Assembly (NCBI GenBank): GCA_023262495.1
Contig: JALRAS010000001.1
Location: 4,486 to 68,485, forward strand
Source of the DNA: Bacteroidia bacterium
GTDB lineage: Bacteria; Bacteroidota; Bacteroidia; UBA4408
Reading direction: 5' to 3'
DNA: 64,000 nt
Made by a program: the position numbers and the translations under genes. Below the pieces are notes generated by a model. The model was not told the origin of the DNA and did not search any database. It saw nothing but the letters and a program-made list of their open reading frames with translations. Within the stretch, counting starts at the first letter, position 1. The number at the start of each line of letters is the position of its first letter. Shown here piece after piece: positions 32,790 through 49,433 of the stretch.

Positions 32790-34709
32790 CTATACCGATT
32801 GCCAATATGCCAACTCTTTTACGCTTACCTTTTGAATGAGCCCCTGATGATTTAATTTTTCTAACTCTGCATCTGCGGCAGGTTGGTCAATACTCAATAA
32901 AAATGCAAATTCCTTCTCGGTCATATTGTTGTATAGCTTAAATAAGTCTGCAGGAGTAGGCAAATTGATGTTTTTCTTGGCATCGGGAACGTATTTCAAG
33001 ATTGTTTGCTCAATAATTTCATAGGTTTTAAGACCTTTTAAAATTTCTGACTCCATGCCCTTTCTTTCAAAGATTAATGTTGGGAAAACACGAATATTCA
33101 GCTCGTTTGCCTTTGCTAAATCTTTTTTAAAATCATCGATTCCTTCTTTCTTCATGTTTTTTTGCAAGAGTGCTGCATCTAATCCGCAAAACAGGGCAGC
33201 CCTCTCTAAATTCTCCCAGTTATTGATGTTCTTTTTCTCCATAAACAGCATTTCTTTCAATCTTCTTAGAAAGAATATGGCCTTATCTTTATCTTGTAAT
33301 TGCGCAGCTTTAAAAGCAATACAAGGCGGGTAAGATGACATTAAAGGATCTTCAAGCCATATATCACCATCTATTGGAATTTTTTCTTTCCCTCTAATCT
33401 CTTCCCATAGTTGGGCTGCATCAGTAGGTTTTGTAATGCGCTTATCATCAAAATTCTCCCAACTTGGCAGTAGCCCCCCCATGTGATAATCAATCTTAAT
33501 GTAATCATCGTATTCCAACAATAGTTTTCTGAGCAATGGCTGCAGCACCCAACAACTTGAGCAAATAGGGTCAGTAAAGTAAGTGATGGTAAGCGGCTTT
33601 TCTATTGCTTTTTTCTTGGCTTTGTATTTATCGGAAATGAGTGGTAAAATAAAACCTCTTTCACTGTATTTATCAGGCTCGAGAAATATTTGTTTTAAAT
33701 CTCTACCTTGTTGAATATGGTTAACAAGTTCATTACTGCGCTGATCATAATACATTGCAAAAGCCATTTGAATACTTTGTGTACTTGCCAAACATTCAGT
33801 TAATACGGCAGCATCTTTAATGGCATTGGTAGTTCCCGAACTGGTAAAGGGAAGCGCCAAATGTGCCGCATCGCCAATCAATACCACATTTTCTTTATGA
33901 AAAGTTGGAAGCAAATCAAAATCGTGGGTATTCCAAATGTATGAAGTATCAAAATTATTCCCATCCAACACATTTTTAACTTCCTCAGGAAATTCTTTCA
34001 GCATAGCATGACAAAATTCTTTTAGCTGCTCCGGTGATTGAACATTGTAGTCCTTTTCGAATCTACTATCGTACTGCATAAACCAAACACATTCATTATC
34101 AGTTGCTGGAATAAAACCACAGGACAAGCCCATCTGAGCGCTCTGAAATTTTTGAAAGATGTTATACTCTGAAGATTTGGAATAGGCAGATATGCCAACA
34201 ACTTCTTTCACTTCAACGGGTGTATAGGTCGTTGGTCCAAACAGCGCTTTTCTTGTGGCTGAGTTACTGCCATCGGCTCCAATAAAAATATCACTTTCAG
34301 CGCTGATGCCATTTTTAAAAACCACGGCCTTTACTTTTTCTCCCTCGTATTCAAAATGCGAAAAATCACATCCAAACTTAAGCGTATCGCTATTATAAAA
34401 TGATACTAAATAATTGATTAAATCAACTCTTTTAATGCAATACCAATCATCAAGCCCAATTTTTATGAGTTGCTCGTTGTTGGGGCGCTTAAAACTGAAC
34501 AAATCAACCTTTTTTGCAGGAATATCTTTACTGTTTTTATCTGTAAACGATTTCAAATGATTTAAACCATCTCCATTCATTAAAAATGCATGACCTCTGG
34601 TTTGCACCTCACTTGTGCGCTCGAACACTGTTACTTCATGGCCATTTTTTTTCAAGAAAATTCCTTGTGCCAAACCTGCGATTCCGCCCCCTATAATTGT
34701 TACTTTCAT
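32790..34709 (-). CDS. Fusion protein: FAD-dependent aromatic-ring-hydroxylase-type monooxygenase (N-terminal) joined to a DsbA-like thioredoxin-fold domain with a CxxC motif (C-terminal)
   Basis: The N-terminal part has VTIIGGGIAGL, GADGSNSATR and GDAAH flavin-monooxygenase motifs. From about residue 375, TYFTDPICSSCW…IDGDIWLEDPL…SYPPCIAFKAAQLQD is about 50% identical to the stand-alone DsbA-like protein at 48447..49433. Confidence 0.7.
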   Translation of the reverse strand: MKVTIIGGGIAGLAQGIFLKKNGHEVTVFERTSEVQTRGHAFLMNGDGLNHLKSFTDKNSKDIPAKKVDLFSFKRPNNEQLIKIGLDDWYCIKRVDLINYLVSFYNSDTLKFGCDFSHFEYEGEKVKAVVFKNGISAESDIFIGADGSNSATRKALFGPTTYTPVEVKEVVGISAYSKSSEYNIFQKFQSAQMGLSCGFIPATDNECVWFMQYDSRFEKDYNVQSPEQLKEFCHAMLKEFPEEVKNVLDGNNFDTSYIWNTHDFDLLPTFHKENVVLIGDAAHLALPFTSSGTTNAIKDAAVLTECLASTQSIQMAFAMYYDQRSNELVNHIQQGRDLKQIFLEPDKYSERGFILPLISDKYKAKKKAIEKPLTITYFTDPICSSCWVLQPLLRKLLLEYDDYIKIDYHMGGLLPSWENFDDKRITKPTDAAQLWEEIRGKEKIPIDGDIWLEDPLMSSYPPCIAFKAAQLQDKDKAIFFLRRLKEMLFMEKKNINNWENLERAALFCGLDAALLQKNMKKEGIDDFKKDLAKANELNIRVFPTLIFERKGMESEILKGLKTYEIIEQTILKYVPDAKKNINLPTPADLFKLYNNMTEKEFAFLLSIDQPAADAELEKLNHQGLIQKVSVKELAYWQSV

Positions 34710-35869
34710 AAATTTCTTTCGATTCGATTGATAGACTCTGTTAATAATTCTGCTGATGTCGCAAAGCTGATTCTGATATAACCCTCAGCTCCGCGTCCAA
34801 ACCATTTGCTTAATCCCGGCACTACAGCCACCTTTGCCTGTTCCAACATTTTTAAATGAAATTGTTCAGCACTCATGCCTGTTTGAGTGATATCAATAAA
34901 ACTCACATAGCAACCCTCGGGTGGAAGTGTTTTTAATCCCGGAATTGTATTGATGCGCGCAGTAATTAAATCACGCATTTGTTGTAGATGATCAACAAAC
35001 TCTGCTAACCAATCTTGCGCCTCATTTAAAGCTGCTGCTGCAGCAATTTGACCCAAAGAATTGGCTCCGTGAATAGTTGATTGATGTAGTGAGTGCGCAA
35101 ATATACTTTCAAATAAAGCTTTATTGCTTGTGGCAATAAATCCAATTCTTAATCCTGCTAAACCATATGATTTACTAAATCCGCTTACTGTTACAACCTG
35201 ATTAGAAATTGAATCGGACAAACTGCCTATGCTCGTAAAAACATGTGGCTTAAAAACAATATCGCTCCAAATTTCATCAGATAAAATAATGATATTATGC
35301 TTCAACGCAATCTTGCCCAATTGCTCCAATTCGCTTCGTTTGAAAACTTTTCCTGTTGGATTAAGCGGATTGCATAGGCAAATCAGTTTTGTTTTTGGTG
35401 TAATCAATTGTTCCAACAACGAAAAATCAACTGTTTGTGTACTAGGTGGAATAGGAAAACGTATAGGCTTTGCACCAATATTTTCGATGGCATATTGAAA
35501 CAGAAAATCAACCGGATCGAAGATGATTGCTTCATCATTTGGGTTGAGCATTGTTTTGCAAACTAAATAAATTCCAAAAGCAGCACTGTCAACTGGCAAT
35601 ATGTGAGCAGGATCAACTAAATAATTTCTTTTTGACTTAAGAAACTGATGTACCGCTTCTTTGAACTGTGGTAATCCTTCGGCAGGTGCGTATGAAAAAT
35701 ATCCTCCTTTGGTATAATTTTCTATGGCAGCCTGCACCATTGGAGGGCATTTAAAATCGGGGTCTGCGGCAGTTAGCGGAATAACATCTTTGGGAACAGC
35801 AGCCCATCTTAGATTATAGGCCCGCTGTTGCAAAAGTTGTATATCAATTTGTGTATGTTGAAAGGTCAT
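34706..35869 (-). CDS. PLP-dependent aminotransferase, class I/II fold
   Basis: 387 aa; the PLP-lysine lies in GFSKSYGLAGLRIGF. The stop overlaps the start of the monooxygenase fusion by 4 nt. Confidence 0.85.
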   Translation of the reverse strand: MTFQHTQIDIQLLQQRAYNLRWAAVPKDVIPLTAADPDFKCPPMVQAAIENYTKGGYFSYAPAEGLPQFKEAVHQFLKSKRNYLVDPAHILPVDSAAFGIYLVCKTMLNPNDEAIIFDPVDFLFQYAIENIGAKPIRFPIPPSTQTVDFSLLEQLITPKTKLICLCNPLNPTGKVFKRSELEQLGKIALKHNIIILSDEIWSDIVFKPHVFTSIGSLSDSISNQVVTVSGFSKSYGLAGLRIGFIATSNKALFESIFAHSLHQSTIHGANSLGQIAAAAALNEAQDWLAEFVDHLQQMRDLITARINTIPGLKTLPPEGCYVSFIDITQTGMSAEQFHLKMLEQAKVAVVPGLSKWFGRGAEGYIRISFATSAELLTESINRIERNL

Positions 35870-36443: not shown

Positions 36444-37352
36444 CTAATGCAAGATGAATTGGTTTAATGCCTCAATTACAATATTGGCATACTTAACTAT
36501 ATGCTGCCCAGGAATGTTTTCCCAGTACTTATTTTTTAAAATTAATGATTTTGACGCATTGGCAGCGCCCGAAATATGCGGAATACTAATCACATTCAAC
36601 ATCTCTTCCTTTTCAATTGATGGCTGTATAGTATTAATTTGAAGCCCCCCGAATGATGTGTTTTCCGACCAAATGTTTAATTTCTTATCATACAAATTAA
36701 GCAATGCATTTCCTGCATTATTTCCTAAAGTCAAGATAACAGACGGGCTAATAATTTTGATTTCCTTTTGTAAGATTTCGGCATGAGCGGGAAGACCTCT
36801 ATATGTTTTTAAAGCATTACTTTTAGAGAAAACTGTGTTGCCTTTTTTATCCTTTTTATTTTTTTCGATGTAAAAAAATAATTTAAAGATATCGGTCACG
36901 TAAATATTGAAGTGCTTAAGAATTTCACTAAAAAACTCAGCATTGGCATCGGTATTATTGTCAATTAAACTAAAGGGAGCCCAAAATCCAACCTGTTTCA
37001 ACAAACTTCCTTTGTTTCTATTTTTATACGCGATATGCTTACCTAAATTCTCTTCATTGGGGACAGGCGGTAATGCATCCATAGCACAGACCATAACCGT
37101 AGGTGCATTTTTTTTTGATGAACACTCCAAGTAAATTGGCAAATCGGTTGCAAATGACAGCGCTGTATGCCTCTCATTTACTTGATTAACAATAGCTAAA
37201 TAATTTGGATTTAAGGCTGAAAGTTCTGCAAAACTCAGTGTGTTTCGGAGTTCCTTTTTTTGTATTTCATTCAATACTTTGGAGTACTCCAATAACTCAT
37301 TGTAAATTAAGGACAATCTCCCATTACCGCAATTAACAAAACTGCTCTCCAA
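36444..37352 (-). CDS. Hypothetical protein with uracil-DNA-glycosylase-superfamily-like motifs (divergent)
   Basis: The order …NIYVTDIFK… (UDG vY.TN..KC-like), …PSVILTLGNNAGNALL… (UDG P.vivaLG..A-like) and …IPHISGAAN… (HPSP-like) matches the UDG fold, but the N-terminal active-site motif (GE.PG) is not conserved (CAMDALPP). Confidence 0.35.
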   Translation of the reverse strand: MESSFVNCGNGRLSLIYNELLEYSKVLNEIQKKELRNTLSFAELSALNPNYLAIVNQVNERHTALSFATDLPIYLECSSKKNAPTVMVCAMDALPPVPNEENLGKHIAYKNRNKGSLLKQVGFWAPFSLIDNNTDANAEFFSEILKHFNIYVTDIFKLFFYIEKNKKDKKGNTVFSKSNALKTYRGLPAHAEILQKEIKIISPSVILTLGNNAGNALLNLYDKKLNIWSENTSFGGLQINTIQPSIEKEEMLNVISIPHISGAANASKSLILKNKYWENIPGQHIVKYANIVIEALNQFILH

Positions 37353-37416: not shown

Positions 37417-38139
37417 TTATGAAAATGCTTTTACATAGGACATTGGGCAAATATAATCTTGCCTAAATTCAGAAATAACATCCTTATAATTTTCAATGTT
37501 AATAGGGTCACGATAATTGGTATAAAAATCTTTGAGGCATTCAACATCATTTTGAACAGGCATTTCATTATGCCATAAAAAAGTTAAATCACATGTGTTT
37601 ATTTTGACAACTCTTAATGCATATGCTGTATCATTCTCCATTAAAAATGAATCTGCCTTGCCAATATAATCACAACAAAATTCCAACACATTTTTGTCCA
37701 TTATAATATTGTGATAATCATCAACAATAATTCTGTCATCAGCAACACCAAAACTCAAATTTTCAAATGCGTTACTAAAAGTAAGTTCAACCTTACCTCC
37801 ATTTTCCTGCACCACCTCAAAAAATATTATCATTTTACCGGAATTAAATGGGGTTAATGATTGCTGATTACCATCCCACTTACCGCGCATTGTTCCTTTT
37901 TCGAGGCCGCTCTTATATTTTCCAATAAAACGATCATTTGAAAGGAAAGTCCATTCAAAAAGTCCATGATCTTTTTTATTTTTCCATATGCCCTCTACCT
38001 TATTTCCGATTAATTTACCACTACACACACCATCATCTTGATAGGTAGCGGTAACGTTATCGCCATTTTGAGCAATAGTTAATTCACCATGTTGTGTTTT
38101 GTACGTGCCTGATAAATTCACCTTTTTATATTTATCCAT
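37417..38139 (-). CDS. Hypothetical protein, paralogue B (shared N-terminal ~100-aa module plus unique C-terminus)
   Basis: The N-terminus SGTYKTQHGELTIAQNGDNVTATYQDDGVCSGKLIGNKVEGIWKNKKDHGLFEWTF…GKYKSGLEKGTMRGKWDG is about 85% identical to the N-terminus of the upstream gene. Its start overlaps the upstream stop (ATGGATAA). Confidence 0.5.
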   Translation of the reverse strand: MDKYKKVNLSGTYKTQHGELTIAQNGDNVTATYQDDGVCSGKLIGNKVEGIWKNKKDHGLFEWTFLSNDRFIGKYKSGLEKGTMRGKWDGNQQSLTPFNSGKMIIFFEVVQENGGKVELTFSNAFENLSFGVADDRIIVDDYHNIIMDKNVLEFCCDYIGKADSFLMENDTAYALRVVKINTCDLTFLWHNEMPVQNDVECLKDFYTNYRDPINIENYKDVISEFRQDYICPMSYVKAFS

Positions 38140-39328
38140 TTAATAAGAAATCTAAATTAATGTCCCTTGACTCATATTCCAACTCAATCCCTTTATCTCT
38201 ATGCCAGCTTTCATCAGGAAGCACTAGTTCATTATCATAGAACATATAGTTTGCGATTGTCGTCAATGAGTTTCCTCTGAAATCACCATAATTGGCGTGT
38301 GAAAGGAAAAGTAATTTAGACAGATTAAAATTTTCTACTTCAAGGTAGTAGGAATAATCAATAATATCATCATGCATTATTGTTATGCTAAAATCTCGAT
38401 CGCTGATTTCTTCAAATGCTTGGGGAGAAAACCACGCCTCGCAGAACATAACCCCTTCCTTATTGATTCCAACTCCAAGATCATCGGGCAGACCAAATTC
38501 TCCTGAATTTTTTCGAATAAATGCTTTAAGGGTATCAAAGATTTTATTTTCAAATTCATCAACCGGAGTATCTTCAGTATGATAACCTTTTACTACTTTT
38601 GAAAAATCTCCAAAACTGCTACTTTTATGGATTTCCTTACCGTTCACTAATATTTGAATACTGCAATCGTCCTCAAAAAAAGTAATAAATCCTGTACCCC
38701 CAGCCCAATAGTCGGCAGTATCAAAAAGTGCATCATACAAACCAAAATGATCTAAATCATATTCCAATATTTCTTGATATAGTGCATAAAAATTGGGACA
38801 TTTATCCTCTAGTTCAGATAGAGCAATAAGGTTAGTAAAATTTTCTCTTTCTGTATCTTTATCTTCAAGGGTGGTGCTTAATAAAAGTCTTAAAAAATCC
38901 TGCTCCGTTTCAATTGACTCATCAGCTATTGATAACACATCTTGCAATTCCTCTTGGAATGACTCTTTAACCTTACCAAAATAATATTTGGGTATTCTAC
39001 CGCTCAAAATAATTTCAACTTTATCTTTTTCGCGCACTTCGGCATCACTCTCATGAAGTATGGAATCAATTGCCTTTCCATCCCACTTACCTCTCATAGG
39101 GCCCTTTTCTATTCCGCTTTTATATTTGCCTGAAAAGTTTCCTTTATCATCAAATATCCATTCAAAGAGTCCCTGATCTTTCTTGTTTTTCCAGATACCT
39201 TCAACTTTATTTCCAATTAGTTTACCACTGCATACGCCATTTTCTTGATAGGTAGCAGTGATATTGTCGCCATTTTGAGCAATACTTAACTCGCCATGCT
39301 GTGTTTTATATGTGCCGTTAATATTCAT
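38132..39328 (-). CDS. Hypothetical protein, paralogue A (shared N-terminal module plus a ~300-aa acidic C-terminal region)
   Basis: It starts MNINGTYKTQHGELSIAQNGDNITATYQENGVCSGKLIGNKVEGIWKNKKDQGLFEWIF…. The ORF track begins at a GTG (39370), 14 codons upstream, inside the preceding small ORF. Confidence 0.5.
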   Translation of the reverse strand: MNINGTYKTQHGELSIAQNGDNITATYQENGVCSGKLIGNKVEGIWKNKKDQGLFEWIFDDKGNFSGKYKSGIEKGPMRGKWDGKAIDSILHESDAEVREKDKVEIILSGRIPKYYFGKVKESFQEELQDVLSIADESIETEQDFLRLLLSTTLEDKDTERENFTNLIALSELEDKCPNFYALYQEILEYDLDHFGLYDALFDTADYWAGGTGFITFFEDDCSIQILVNGKEIHKSSSFGDFSKVVKGYHTEDTPVDEFENKIFDTLKAFIRKNSGEFGLPDDLGVGINKEGVMFCEAWFSPQAFEEISDRDFSITIMHDDIIDYSYYLEVENFNLSKLLFLSHANYGDFRGNSLTTIANYMFYDNELVLPDESWHRDKGIELEYESRDINLDFLLNG

Positions 39329-39329
39329 C

Positions 39330-39530
39330 TTACAGCTTTTGGATATCAAAATATGAGGAAGAGATAGCACTGCTCGAAACCTCCAAGCCGAAAGCTGATT
39401 TTATTGTTTTTGCCACATTGCTCATTTGCGGAGCTGTTGAACTTTGCTCGATATGCTGAAAGCTAGCGCCTTTAGGAATTTTTCCACCTGCAATTGGTTG
39501 TTTTGTTGTTAATTTAAATGCGTATGCCAT
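39330..39530 (-). CDS. Small ORF (66 aa), possibly a genuine small protein translationally coupled to paralogue A
   Basis: Its stop TAA is separated by one nt from the ATG of the next gene (TAAgATG). The product has GG at residues 15-16 (MAYAFKLTTKQPIAGG|KIPKG…) and is Ser/Ala-rich. Confidence 0.35.
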   Translation of the reverse strand: MAYAFKLTTKQPIAGGKIPKGASFQHIEQSSTAPQMSNVAKTIKSAFGLEVSSSAISSSYFDIQKL

Positions 39531-39853
39531 TTGAAATAATTTTAATTCCTACTCGTTTGGCTTTTCGGATTCGCCCCTCGATTATCCCATCGGGGAAGGC
39601 CGTTTTTTAATGGTTTCTGGTCTCCAACATTATTTGATACAAATTTGTATTTTGTAAAATCAAAGTGAAAGTTCAAGTTGGATTAAGTTAGGCTTAAGTA
39701 GCGATAACCGAATTACGCAACATAATAACAGGAGTTGCTAAAACAGCCGTAACTCAATTCATTGGTTAAATAAATTGAAAGCACATCCTAAGCAAGGTTG
39801 CCCTCGTCAAATCAACGGTACGCTTCATTCGCAATTTCTACTGAATAATTAAG

Positions 39854-48446: not shown

Positions 48447-49433
48447 TTACTTTTTCATCATCCAAATTGCGCCATGCTTTGTCGTGAATTTTTGTAGTTT
48501 CCCTTTAGATACCAATTCGTTTAATTGTGTTTCACTGTTTGATCTGCCAATACCTGAAAGTTCGGCAAATTCTTTGGCAGTTAATGAATAATAGTTTTCA
48601 AACAGGGCCTCCCAATTTTTACTGTAAATCTGTTTCTCTGCCGTAGGATTGAGTTTTAAAATGGCGGTTTCAAAAAAAGGGTATGGCTTTGTACCGTAAA
48701 TAATTTCTTTATTTCCCGATTGATTTGTGAAGAAGAGCGTTGGAAATCCTCTCACTCCGTATGTTTTGGCTGCTTTTAAATCTTCTTCGAAAAGCACCTT
48801 GCCCCTGCCCTCGAAATCTTTTTTCAATTGCACTGTATCTATACCAACCTTTGTGGCAGCTGTTGCAATATTGTCCCATTTGGCAATGTTCTTCTTATAG
48901 AGAAATACCATTTCGCGCATCTCTCTTAAAAATAAAAGTGCCTTTTCTTGATCCTGTAATTGAGCTGCTTTGAAAGCAATAGATGGTGGATAAGATGAGC
49001 TCAAAGGGTCTTCGAGCCAAATATCGCCATCAATTGGCATATCATAATAAGCACTTACCTCATCCCAATGATGTGCCACATCTGAAGGCTTACTGATGCC
49101 CCCAACATTATAATTCCAATCGGGCAGTAAGCCACCCATACGGTATTCAATTTCTATTTGGTTTCCATATTCTAACTTCAGCTTTCGCAGTTGTGGCTCA
49201 ATCCCCCAACAAGCAGAACAAATGGGGTCGGTAAAATAAATGACCTTTACAGATTTTTCTGAATGCTGATTGGCTATATTTTTTTCAGCTGTGCTATCGG
49301 CTGTACCACATATTCCTTGAACAGGATTACACAACAACGGATTATTTTTTTCTGTCATTTTTGTTTGGTTTTGAGCCCTGCACGCCACCGAAGCAAACAA
49401 GACTATTTGAATTGCTAATATTACTTTTTTCAC
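48447..49433 (-). CDS. Secreted DsbA-family thioredoxin-fold oxidoreductase; paralogue of the C-terminal domain of the 32790..34709 fusion
   Basis: Signal peptide, then IYFTDPICSACW (CxxC) and IDGDIWLEDPLSSSYPPSIAFKAAQLQD. The C-terminal ~60 aa (TAKEFAELSGIGRSNSETQLNELVSKGKL) look winged-helix-like. Confidence 0.7.
   Translation of the reverse strand: MKKVILAIQIVLFASVACRAQNQTKMTEKNNPLLCNPVQGICGTADSTAEKNIANQHSEKSVKVIYFTDPICSACWGIEPQLRKLKLEYGNQIEIEYRMGGLLPDWNYNVGGISKPSDVAHHWDEVSAYYDMPIDGDIWLEDPLSSSYPPSIAFKAAQLQDQEKALLFLREMREMVFLYKKNIAKWDNIATAATKVGIDTVQLKKDFEGRGKVLFEEDLKAAKTYGVRGFPTLFFTNQSGNKEIIYGTKPYPFFETAILKLNPTAEKQIYSKNWEALFENYYSLTAKEFAELSGIGRSNSETQLNELVSKGKLQKFTTKHGAIWMMKK

Follow-up and report, generated by a model that had tools for sequence, protein, structure and literature searches.

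The locus

The 64-kb stretch of DNA considered here (the window, positions 1-64000, from contig JALRAS010000001.1 of a Bacteroidia bacterium) carries on its minus strand a cassette of two overlapping genes. The first, at 34706..35869, encodes a class I/II pyridoxal phosphate (PLP)-dependent aminotransferase of 387 aa. The second, at 32790..34709, is a fusion gene, in which one unbroken open reading frame (ORF) of 639 aa encodes a group A flavin monooxygenase and, in the same chain, a YjbH/SpxH-like module. The junction reads ...aaatttATGAaagta, with the ATG of the fusion gene at 34709-34707 and the TGA of the aminotransferase gene at 34708-34706, giving a 4-nt stop/start overlap, ATGA, at 34706..34709 that is read directly from the sequence. 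An earlier note on this DNA had described the overlap, together with a fusion of a flavin monooxygenase and a CxxC thioredoxin-fold domain in a non-standard architecture: the overlap is exact to the nucleotide, the fusion is real as a single continuous frame, and the architecture is indeed out of the ordinary.

The fusion protein opens directly with the beta-alpha-beta (Rossmann) unit that binds flavin adenine dinucleotide (FAD), MKVTIIGGGIAGL, with a strand at residues 2-6 and a helix at residues 10-21 in the AlphaFold2 (AF2) model, and therefore has no signal peptide. This supports the cytoplasmic location that had been proposed for it; the N-terminus is a Rossmann unit rather than the export signal of a periplasmic DsbA.

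A widespread fusion in Bacteroidota

Among 5.8 billion proteins searched, 963 are relatives of the fusion protein. The best 120 of these, taken as clusters, all have both Pfam domains, at 49-100% identity, and nearly all are 631-673 aa long with a query coverage of 97-100%. Named carriers include Flavobacterium, Flavipsychrobacter and Bacteroidia metagenome-assembled genomes (MAGs), where the protein is annotated ‘DsbA family protein’ or ‘hypothetical protein’; among carriers that can be cultured are Flavobacterium algicola, F. faecale, F. gillisiae, Arcicella and Flectobacillus. A scan of genomic loci, with one genome per species, took the best 80 of 599 matches and gave at least 72 full-length fusions; the 599 matches are not a count of fusions, because the seed pattern partly fits the genes of stand-alone SpxH-like (thioredoxin-type) proteins too. 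The 80 loci cover Flavobacteriales, Chitinophagales, Cytophagales and Sphingobacteriales, and the closest species-level relative, at 68% identity, belongs to a Crocinitomicaceae MAG (locus L001). The fusion had been thought unique, which is wrong given full-length copies in more than 120 protein clusters and in at least 72 species-level genomes of Bacteroidota. The earlier note had also allowed that it might prove widespread with a function already assigned: the first part holds and the second does not. The module is widespread and conserved, its function is unassigned, and it represents a new kind of fusion within a known adaptor/thiol-oxidoreductase family.

The trivial explanation for such a chain, that two separate genes were merged by a frameshift, a lost stop codon or misassembly, has next to no chance of being true. 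Nothing was found in its favour, and it is already refuted by conserved length and collinearity in independent genomes: the frame is continuous, with no stop or frameshift hidden between the domains, and independent homologues, more than 100 of them and drawn from many assemblies and orders, have the same length and cover the same span of the query. The linker between the halves carries invariant residues, and a fusion in the reversed order also exists. Two predicted genes depart from the usual arrangement. At locus L079 (6001-8305) the fusion is apparently broken: the forward strand codes for residues 1-403, and 300 nt downstream the reverse strand codes for residues 367-636. An inversion, or an assembly error in this MAG, could be the cause. 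The metagenomic protein P0126 (704 aa) combines a partial monooxygenase, Thioredoxin_5 and a RelA_SpoT fragment in one predicted chain, and probably reflects a gene call that was merged or truncated.

Both halves of the fusion protein are modelled with confidence by AF2 (predicted local distance difference test (pLDDT) score 90.2, predicted template modelling (pTM) score 0.84). A pTM of 0.84 for a two-module chain of 639 aa suggests, on the model at least, a fixed interface between the modules. The inter-domain linker, residues 351-370 (33600..33659, minus strand), is the sole low-confidence stretch, with pLDDT below 50 at residues 352-354 and 358-365, so that the disordered part spans 352-365. 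Conservation among window-type proteins (those with the monooxygenase first) was judged in alignments of 24 and 99 homologues. In these P356 of the linker is invariant and L357 nearly so; in a wider set position 357 is L, F, I or Y.

The SpxH-like module

The C-terminal half of the fusion protein had been likened to DsbA, FrnE and 2-hydroxychromene-2-carboxylate (HCCA) isomerase, and this assignment does not stand. Pfam DSBA (PF01323) scores 23.9 bits, under its gathering cutoff of 25.6. Pfam Thioredoxin_5 (PF13743) matches residues 377-568 (E 6e-42, 143.9 bits against a cutoff of 27) and is covered from position 1 to 186 of 186. Residues 370-637 align end-to-end with Geobacillus YjbH/SpxH (PDB 6GHB_B, residues 24-291 of 298) at E 1e-38; the other PF13743 structures, 3KZQ and 2IN3, have no C-terminal domain and score 1e-9 to 1e-6, which is ∼30 orders of magnitude worse. 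The model of the C-terminal half fits YjbH, as seen in its complex with Spx, over 273-275 columns with a template modelling (TM) score of 0.90-0.91, a root-mean-square deviation (rmsd) of 2.3-2.4 Å and 28% identity. A role in HCCA-type isomerisation, floated in the earlier note, is favoured by nothing specific; its other suggestion, a redox-sensing module, is still a live possibility.

YjbH consists of a winged helix joined by a linker to a thioredoxin domain that has a helical insertion (PMC7253607). Because both the sequence alignment and the superposition extend through the winged helix, the fused half has the complete YjbH/SpxH architecture: a Thioredoxin_5 (DsbA-like) domain with helical insertion at residues 371-575 (32985..33599, minus strand; delimited by Pfam and the 6GHB_B alignment), followed by a winged-helix-like domain at residues 576-639 (32793..32984, minus strand) that aligns with the C-terminal part of YjbH. 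Members of the YjbH/SpxH family are free-standing proteins of ∼270-300 aa; here the module takes up residues 366-639 of the 639-aa fusion protein. Its CxxC motif, C383-S-S-C386 in FTDPICSSCW (33552..33563, minus strand), is invariant in 99/99 window-type homologues. The surrounding D380-P381-x-C383-S384-x-C386-W387 and several linker residues are invariant in both alignments, as are E600 and W636 of the winged-helix part among the 99 homologues. Across fused proteins of both domain orders, the two CxxC cysteines and the proline at the cis-Pro position of the thioredoxin fold (P543) are kept in 52/52.

Relatives of the module that stand alone, at ∼305 aa, are common in Bacteroidota and are named ‘ClpXP adapter SpxH family protein’ or ‘DsbA family protein’ by NCBI. 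The first of these names bears on a reading in which the module does what SpxH does in Firmicutes, acting as a ClpXP adaptor that degrades a Spx/ArsC-like regulator or the attached monooxygenase, with oxidative inactivation or aggregation relieving proteolysis. Full-length similarity in sequence and fold to YjbH from the Spx complex agrees with such a role, as do the stand-alone relatives of that name, 43-48% identical. Yet the NCBI label on these relatives is a homology transfer, and NCBIfam 20.0 gives no matching SpxH model even for proteins that NCBI places in the SpxH family. No Spx/ArsC-like gene turned up in the window or the 80 loci, in a weak search with approximate query sequences. 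The conserved partners of the module are metabolic enzymes, not regulators, and the CxxC that all fusions compared have kept is dispensable for Spx degradation in B. subtilis and S. aureus, the S. aureus protein being one without CxxC (PMC7253607).

The genes beside the stand-alone proteins tell in the same direction. In two of the three stand-alone relatives examined, a DoxX (PF07681) gene lies directly upstream of the SpxH-like gene (L086, 366-1771; L092, 4466-5915), so that both relatives looked up outside the window follow DoxX, not spx; the third, a paralogue within the window, has no DoxX beside it. DoxX is a family of quinone-linked membrane proteins. The DoxX, monooxygenase and aminotransferase contexts do not obviously favour the ‘ClpXP adapter’ label, and a canonical adaptor function for the fused module is improbable.

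The paralogue in the window, at 48447-49433 on the minus strand, shares 48% identity with the fused module across 267 residues, and 56% with an Adhaeribacter protein named ‘ClpXP adapter SpxH family protein’ by NCBI. Read from its GTG start, it has an extra leader resembling a signal peptide, MKKVILAIQIVLFASVACRAQ. A similar leader occurs in ∼10% of homologous gene calls, most of which start at an internal Met before a conserved CxPxxGxC.

The monooxygenase half

The monooxygenase domain occupies residues 1-350 (33660..34709, minus strand). Pfam FAD_binding_3 (PF01494) matches residues 2-309 (E 3e-19, 69.8 bits against a cutoff of 22), and the three FAD motifs, GxGxxG at 7-12 (G7-G12), GADG at 144-147 (D146-G147) and GDAAH at 279-283 (G279-H283), are conserved or invariant in both alignments. 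The nearest structure to the AF2 model found by Foldseek is HpxO (3RP8; TM 0.81 normalised to the target, rmsd 2.6 Å, 20% identity), and by this comparison the half has the single-component fold of the p-hydroxybenzoate hydroxylase type. All NCBIfam scores lie far under the equivalog cutoffs, the best being PRK06753 (146.9 bits against 365), with HpxO at 127 against 500. The residues R94, the DG motif, R153 and W259 are common to all variants; they are also present in the alignment with NicC, and so are probably generic framework residues. A substrate could not be read from the residues of NicC or HpxO, His47 of NicC not being kept.

The presence of a flavoprotein and a CxxC thioredoxin-fold domain in one confidently modelled chain, with the CxxC and cis-Pro invariant, raises a different reading of the whole protein: a built-in disulfide reductase or thiol oxidase, in which electrons move by way of the flavin between the CxxC and NAD(P)H or O2, and which acts like thioredoxin reductase, QSOX or GliT on a small-molecule or protein dithiol and not as a hydroxylase. 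QSOX and AhpF are precedents for fusions of flavin and thioredoxin-fold domains. The flavin domain, however, belongs to group A (GADG, GDAAH, HpxO-like fold), which sets it apart from pyridine-nucleotide disulfide oxidoreductases and from Erv-type oxidases. The idea of a relay of cysteines leading from the flavin half to the CxxC was considered and rejected: that half has no conserved redox-active cysteine pair, its C91 and C233 being conserved in the window-type subfamily only. The monooxygenase also occurs without the module, still beside the aminotransferase, and a reductase or oxidase of this kind is improbable.

The aminotransferase and its coupling to the fusion

The first gene of the pair is a clear member of Pfam Aminotran_1_2 (PF00155; E 5e-59, 200.6 bits against a cutoff of 19.7). 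Its active-site motif, SGFSKSYGLAGLRIGF, holds the catalytic Lys and, eight residues on, the phosphate-binding Arg, and SKSYGLAGLR aligns with SKTFAMTGWR of 1GD9; Arg at Lys+8 is as in the aminotransferases 1GD9 and 1J32. A PatB/MalY-type C-S lyase was rejected on two counts: TIGR04350 scores 245.8 bits against a cutoff of 340, and the residue at Lys+8 is Arg, not the Gln of the PatB motif SKTFNIAGLQ (6QP3, 4DGT).

Whether the two genes are always adjacent, a check that the earlier note had proposed, is answered largely in the affirmative. In 72 of the 80 loci an orthologue of the aminotransferase lies directly upstream of the fusion gene on the same strand, at 52-75% identity (43% in L075). 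In six of the remaining eight the sequence is truncated at the fusion gene; the other two, L021 and L042, are without the aminotransferase. The spacing from stop to start is -4 in 36 of the 68 scorable loci, and -1 to +5 in 12 more.

Reversed fusions and other architectures

An exhaustive phmmer search, run with the last 273 residues of the fusion protein on 1.84 billion cluster representatives, brought up only 1027 relatives of the module, 107 of them at E ≤ 1e-30. Those that are roughly full length fall into three groups: (i) proteins of ∼640 aa with the module at the C-terminus, (ii) free-standing proteins of ∼270-340 aa, and (iii) proteins of ∼590-690 aa with the module at the N-terminus. 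The third group, likewise in Bacteroidota, has Thioredoxin_5 followed by FAD_binding_3 in Pfam, the reverse of the order in the window, and makes up ∼16 of the best 150 representatives of clusters at 50% identity. In 6/6 independent contexts of the reversed type an aminotransferase gene follows at once, overlapping or within 5 nt. The order of genes and domains is thereby mirrored, as aminotransferase then monooxygenase-thioredoxin in the window type and thioredoxin-monooxygenase then aminotransferase in the reversed type, so that it is always the monooxygenase that adjoins the aminotransferase. The aminotransferases of all architectures are 41-58% identical to one another and to that of the window, and the monooxygenase halves have 26-43% mutual identity, against ∼20% to solved enzymes. 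The conserved core is thus the translationally coupled monooxygenase-aminotransferase pair, with the SpxH-like module as an accessory on either end.

In one reversed lineage (P0140) the thioredoxin half is 43-51% identical to window-type and stand-alone proteins, and in the other reversed lineages it is only 30-40% identical to anything. As far as sequence comparison goes, the nearest relatives of the thioredoxin half thus change from one fusion lineage to another, which argues for fusion events that are repeated or very old.

A stand-alone monooxygenase relative of 370 aa overlaps a downstream aminotransferase. At locus L084 (6001-12307), which has no thioredoxin module, a monooxygenase is followed by an overlapping aminotransferase and a second monooxygenase paralogue (57% identical), and then by PALP and Cys_Met_Meta_PP genes; these last neighbours suggest sulfur amino-acid metabolism.

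Kinases and receivers beside the cassettes

Some cassettes adjoin signalling genes. Orthologues of a GAF-PAS kinase and a receiver lie upstream in ∼17-19 of the 80 window-type loci, and a PAS histidine kinase adjoins 4/6 reversed-type loci; examples are L010 (2345-4740), L082 (9142-11546), L081 (3778-5976), L087 (652-2613) and L090 (8337-9929). Between the window-type locus L010 and the reversed-type locus L082 the GAF-PAS kinases are 44% and the receivers 55% identical. The receivers beside the cassettes are single-domain proteins with no output domain.

These neighbours raise the question of a signalling or trigger enzyme: the pair might make or destroy a ligand that is sensed by the PAS/GAF kinase, or the SpxH-like module might be a protein-binding adaptor through which the monooxygenase passes its redox or catalytic state on to the receiver or a transcription factor. 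The presence of orthologous kinases and receivers at cassettes of both types, and receivers that lack an output of their own, fit with this. So do the retained and conserved winged helix and the nature of YjbH itself, a protein-protein adaptor that binds at least nine proteins in Listeria (PMC7253607). However, most window-type loci, this window included, have no kinase or receiver beside the cassette, no operator-like conserved motif was found upstream of it (AT-rich k-mers only), and the catalytic motifs of both enzymes are strictly conserved, as they would be in working enzymes. A signalling function of this kind seems rather unlikely.

The window does hold a histidine kinase gene at 1543-2868 on the minus strand, ∼30 kb away from the cassette. 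Over its C-terminal ∼385 residues, this kinase has 41-46% identity to the PAS kinases of L081 and L087.

Surroundings of the cassette

The cassette is flanked by nadE, a gene for an outer-membrane beta-barrel protein, gldB and gldC, which mark the window as Bacteroidota DNA. In none of the 80 loci does any other neighbour seen in the window accompany the cassette. No riboswitch or other RNA was found upstream of the cassette, and the whole 64-kb window has zero tRNA genes and zero Rfam matches at the gathering threshold.

Directly upstream of the 574-nt intergenic region of the cassette lies an ORF of 302 aa with a TTG start (36444-37352, minus strand), which has a weak match (27.8 bits) to the uracil-DNA glycosylase superfamily. 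Two adjacent, overlapping ORFs farther on (37417-38139 and 38132-39370, both minus strand) have a nearly identical N-terminal segment of ∼55 aa (NGTYKTQHGEL..IAQNGDN.TATYQ..GVCSGKLIGNKVEGIWKNKKD) and no Pfam match in either. About 170 nt upstream of the second of these, on the same strand, a DUF805 RNA motif is seen below threshold at 39542-39632 (42.9 bits against a gathering cutoff of 51.1, E 3e-5).

A proposed two-enzyme module with a dithiol domain

The preferred reading, which is given an even chance of being right, is that the cassette is a Bacteroidota-wide, cytoplasmic two-enzyme small-molecule module with a redox-active SpxH-like dithiol domain that its monooxygenase has acquired more than once. 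Both enzymes would act consecutively on one amino-acid-derived small molecule, most plausibly an aromatic or heteroaromatic one. The monooxygenase, as a group A enzyme, is predicted to depend on NAD(P)H and O2 and to form a flavin hydroperoxide. The strict conservation of CxxC and cis-Pro suggests that the SpxH-like module would be a redox-active dithiol/disulfide centre serving this oxygen-activating flavoenzyme. Such a centre may reduce or trap a reactive product, which could be a quinone, a sulfenate or a peroxide; alternatively, it may be a thiol switch that gates the monooxygenase. In many genomes the PAS/GAF kinase and the single-domain receiver would control the module or respond to its product.

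Several points weigh against this reading. Identity to characterised monooxygenases is only ∼20-25%, and the catalytic His47 of NicC aligns to Met44, so that the chemistry of the monooxygenase is not readable from homology. Stand-alone monooxygenase relatives pair with the aminotransferase without any SpxH-like module, which makes the module accessory and not essential to the chemistry. Apart from the kinase and receiver, no enzyme besides the pair travels with the cassette in the 80 loci, and a two-step pathway would therefore need a link to general metabolism. No YjbH protein has ever been shown to act as a thioredoxin, and in B. subtilis and S. aureus the cysteines can be dispensed with (PMC7253607). 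No paper describing the fusion or the cassette was found.

The role of the thioredoxin-like CxxC of YjbH is still unclear (PMC7253607). In B. subtilis, yjbH is co-transcribed with yjbI, which encodes a truncated haemoglobin with peroxidase-like activity that reacts with O2 and peroxide, and YjbH has been suggested, inconclusively, as the electron donor of YjbI (PMC9536834). By analogy, this co-transcription is a suggestive parallel to the fusion with an O2-activating enzyme. A broader proposition can be built on the partners of the family, which are flavin monooxygenases in the fusions, YjbI in Bacilli and DoxX in other Bacteroidota: that SpxH/YjbH proteins are primarily dithiol redox partners or sensors for oxygen- or quinone-reactive proteins, and that the ClpXP-adaptor role in Firmicutes is derived. 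This is doubtful as it stands; if true, the Bacteroidota fusions, repeated and in both orders, would explain the purpose of the YjbH CxxC.

What the cassette adds is a conserved, uncharacterised module, widespread in environmental Bacteroidota, in which an SpxH-like dithiol domain, a flavin monooxygenase and an aminotransferase come together, in many cases beside a PAS/GAF kinase and a receiver, and for which public annotation offers only ‘DsbA family protein’. YjbH/SpxH has been studied as a stress-proteolysis adaptor of Firmicutes, and the occurrence of the complete module on an O2-activating enzyme, in both orientations, turns the idea of a redox partner into a testable hypothesis.

Comparison with known systems

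The group A monooxygenases, among them the urate hydroxylase HpxO, the 6-hydroxynicotinate 3-monooxygenase NicC, salicylate and 3-hydroxybenzoate hydroxylases and Tet(X)-type destructases, have the same fold as the monooxygenase half (TM 0.68-0.83, target-normalised), the same three FAD motifs and the same single-component architecture. They differ in sequence, with ∼20% identity and His47 of NicC not conserved in the fusion, and none of them carries a thioredoxin-fold domain, unlike the fusion protein.

The fused module resembles the DsbA/FrnE/HCCA isomerase family (PF01323) in its thioredoxin fold with a helical insertion and, as regards DsbA and FrnE, in its CxxC. HCCA isomerase and the kappa-class glutathione S-transferases use glutathione and a catalytic Ser instead of CxxC. 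In contrast with this family, the fused module has an extra winged helix, no signal peptide and a DSBA score below threshold.

YjbH/SpxH of Bacillus, Geobacillus, Staphylococcus and Listeria, the ClpXP adaptor for Spx (6GHB, 6GHO), has the N-terminal DPxCxxCW in common with the fused module, and each is genetically tied to an O2-reactive redox protein, which in Bacillus is encoded by yjbI (PMC9536834). YjbH is free-standing and found in Firmicutes, whereas the fused module sits on a 350-aa flavin monooxygenase in Bacteroidota with no spx gene found nearby; all the fused proteins compared have retained the CxxC, which some YjbH proteins of Firmicutes lack or can do without (PMC7253607).

The reversed fusions (e.g. 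P0192 and P0279) share with the window-type cassettes the two domain families, the CxxC motif, an adjacent orthologous aminotransferase and neighbouring kinases and receivers of a similar type, with only 26-33% identity to the window protein in the monooxygenase half and 30-43% in the thioredoxin half. The nearest relatives of the fused module are the stand-alone SpxH/DsbA-family proteins of Bacteroidota, which are 43-56% identical over the whole module, winged helix included, and also have FTDPICSxCW; what sets them apart is an extra N-terminal CxPxxGxC pair and, in some gene calls, a leader.

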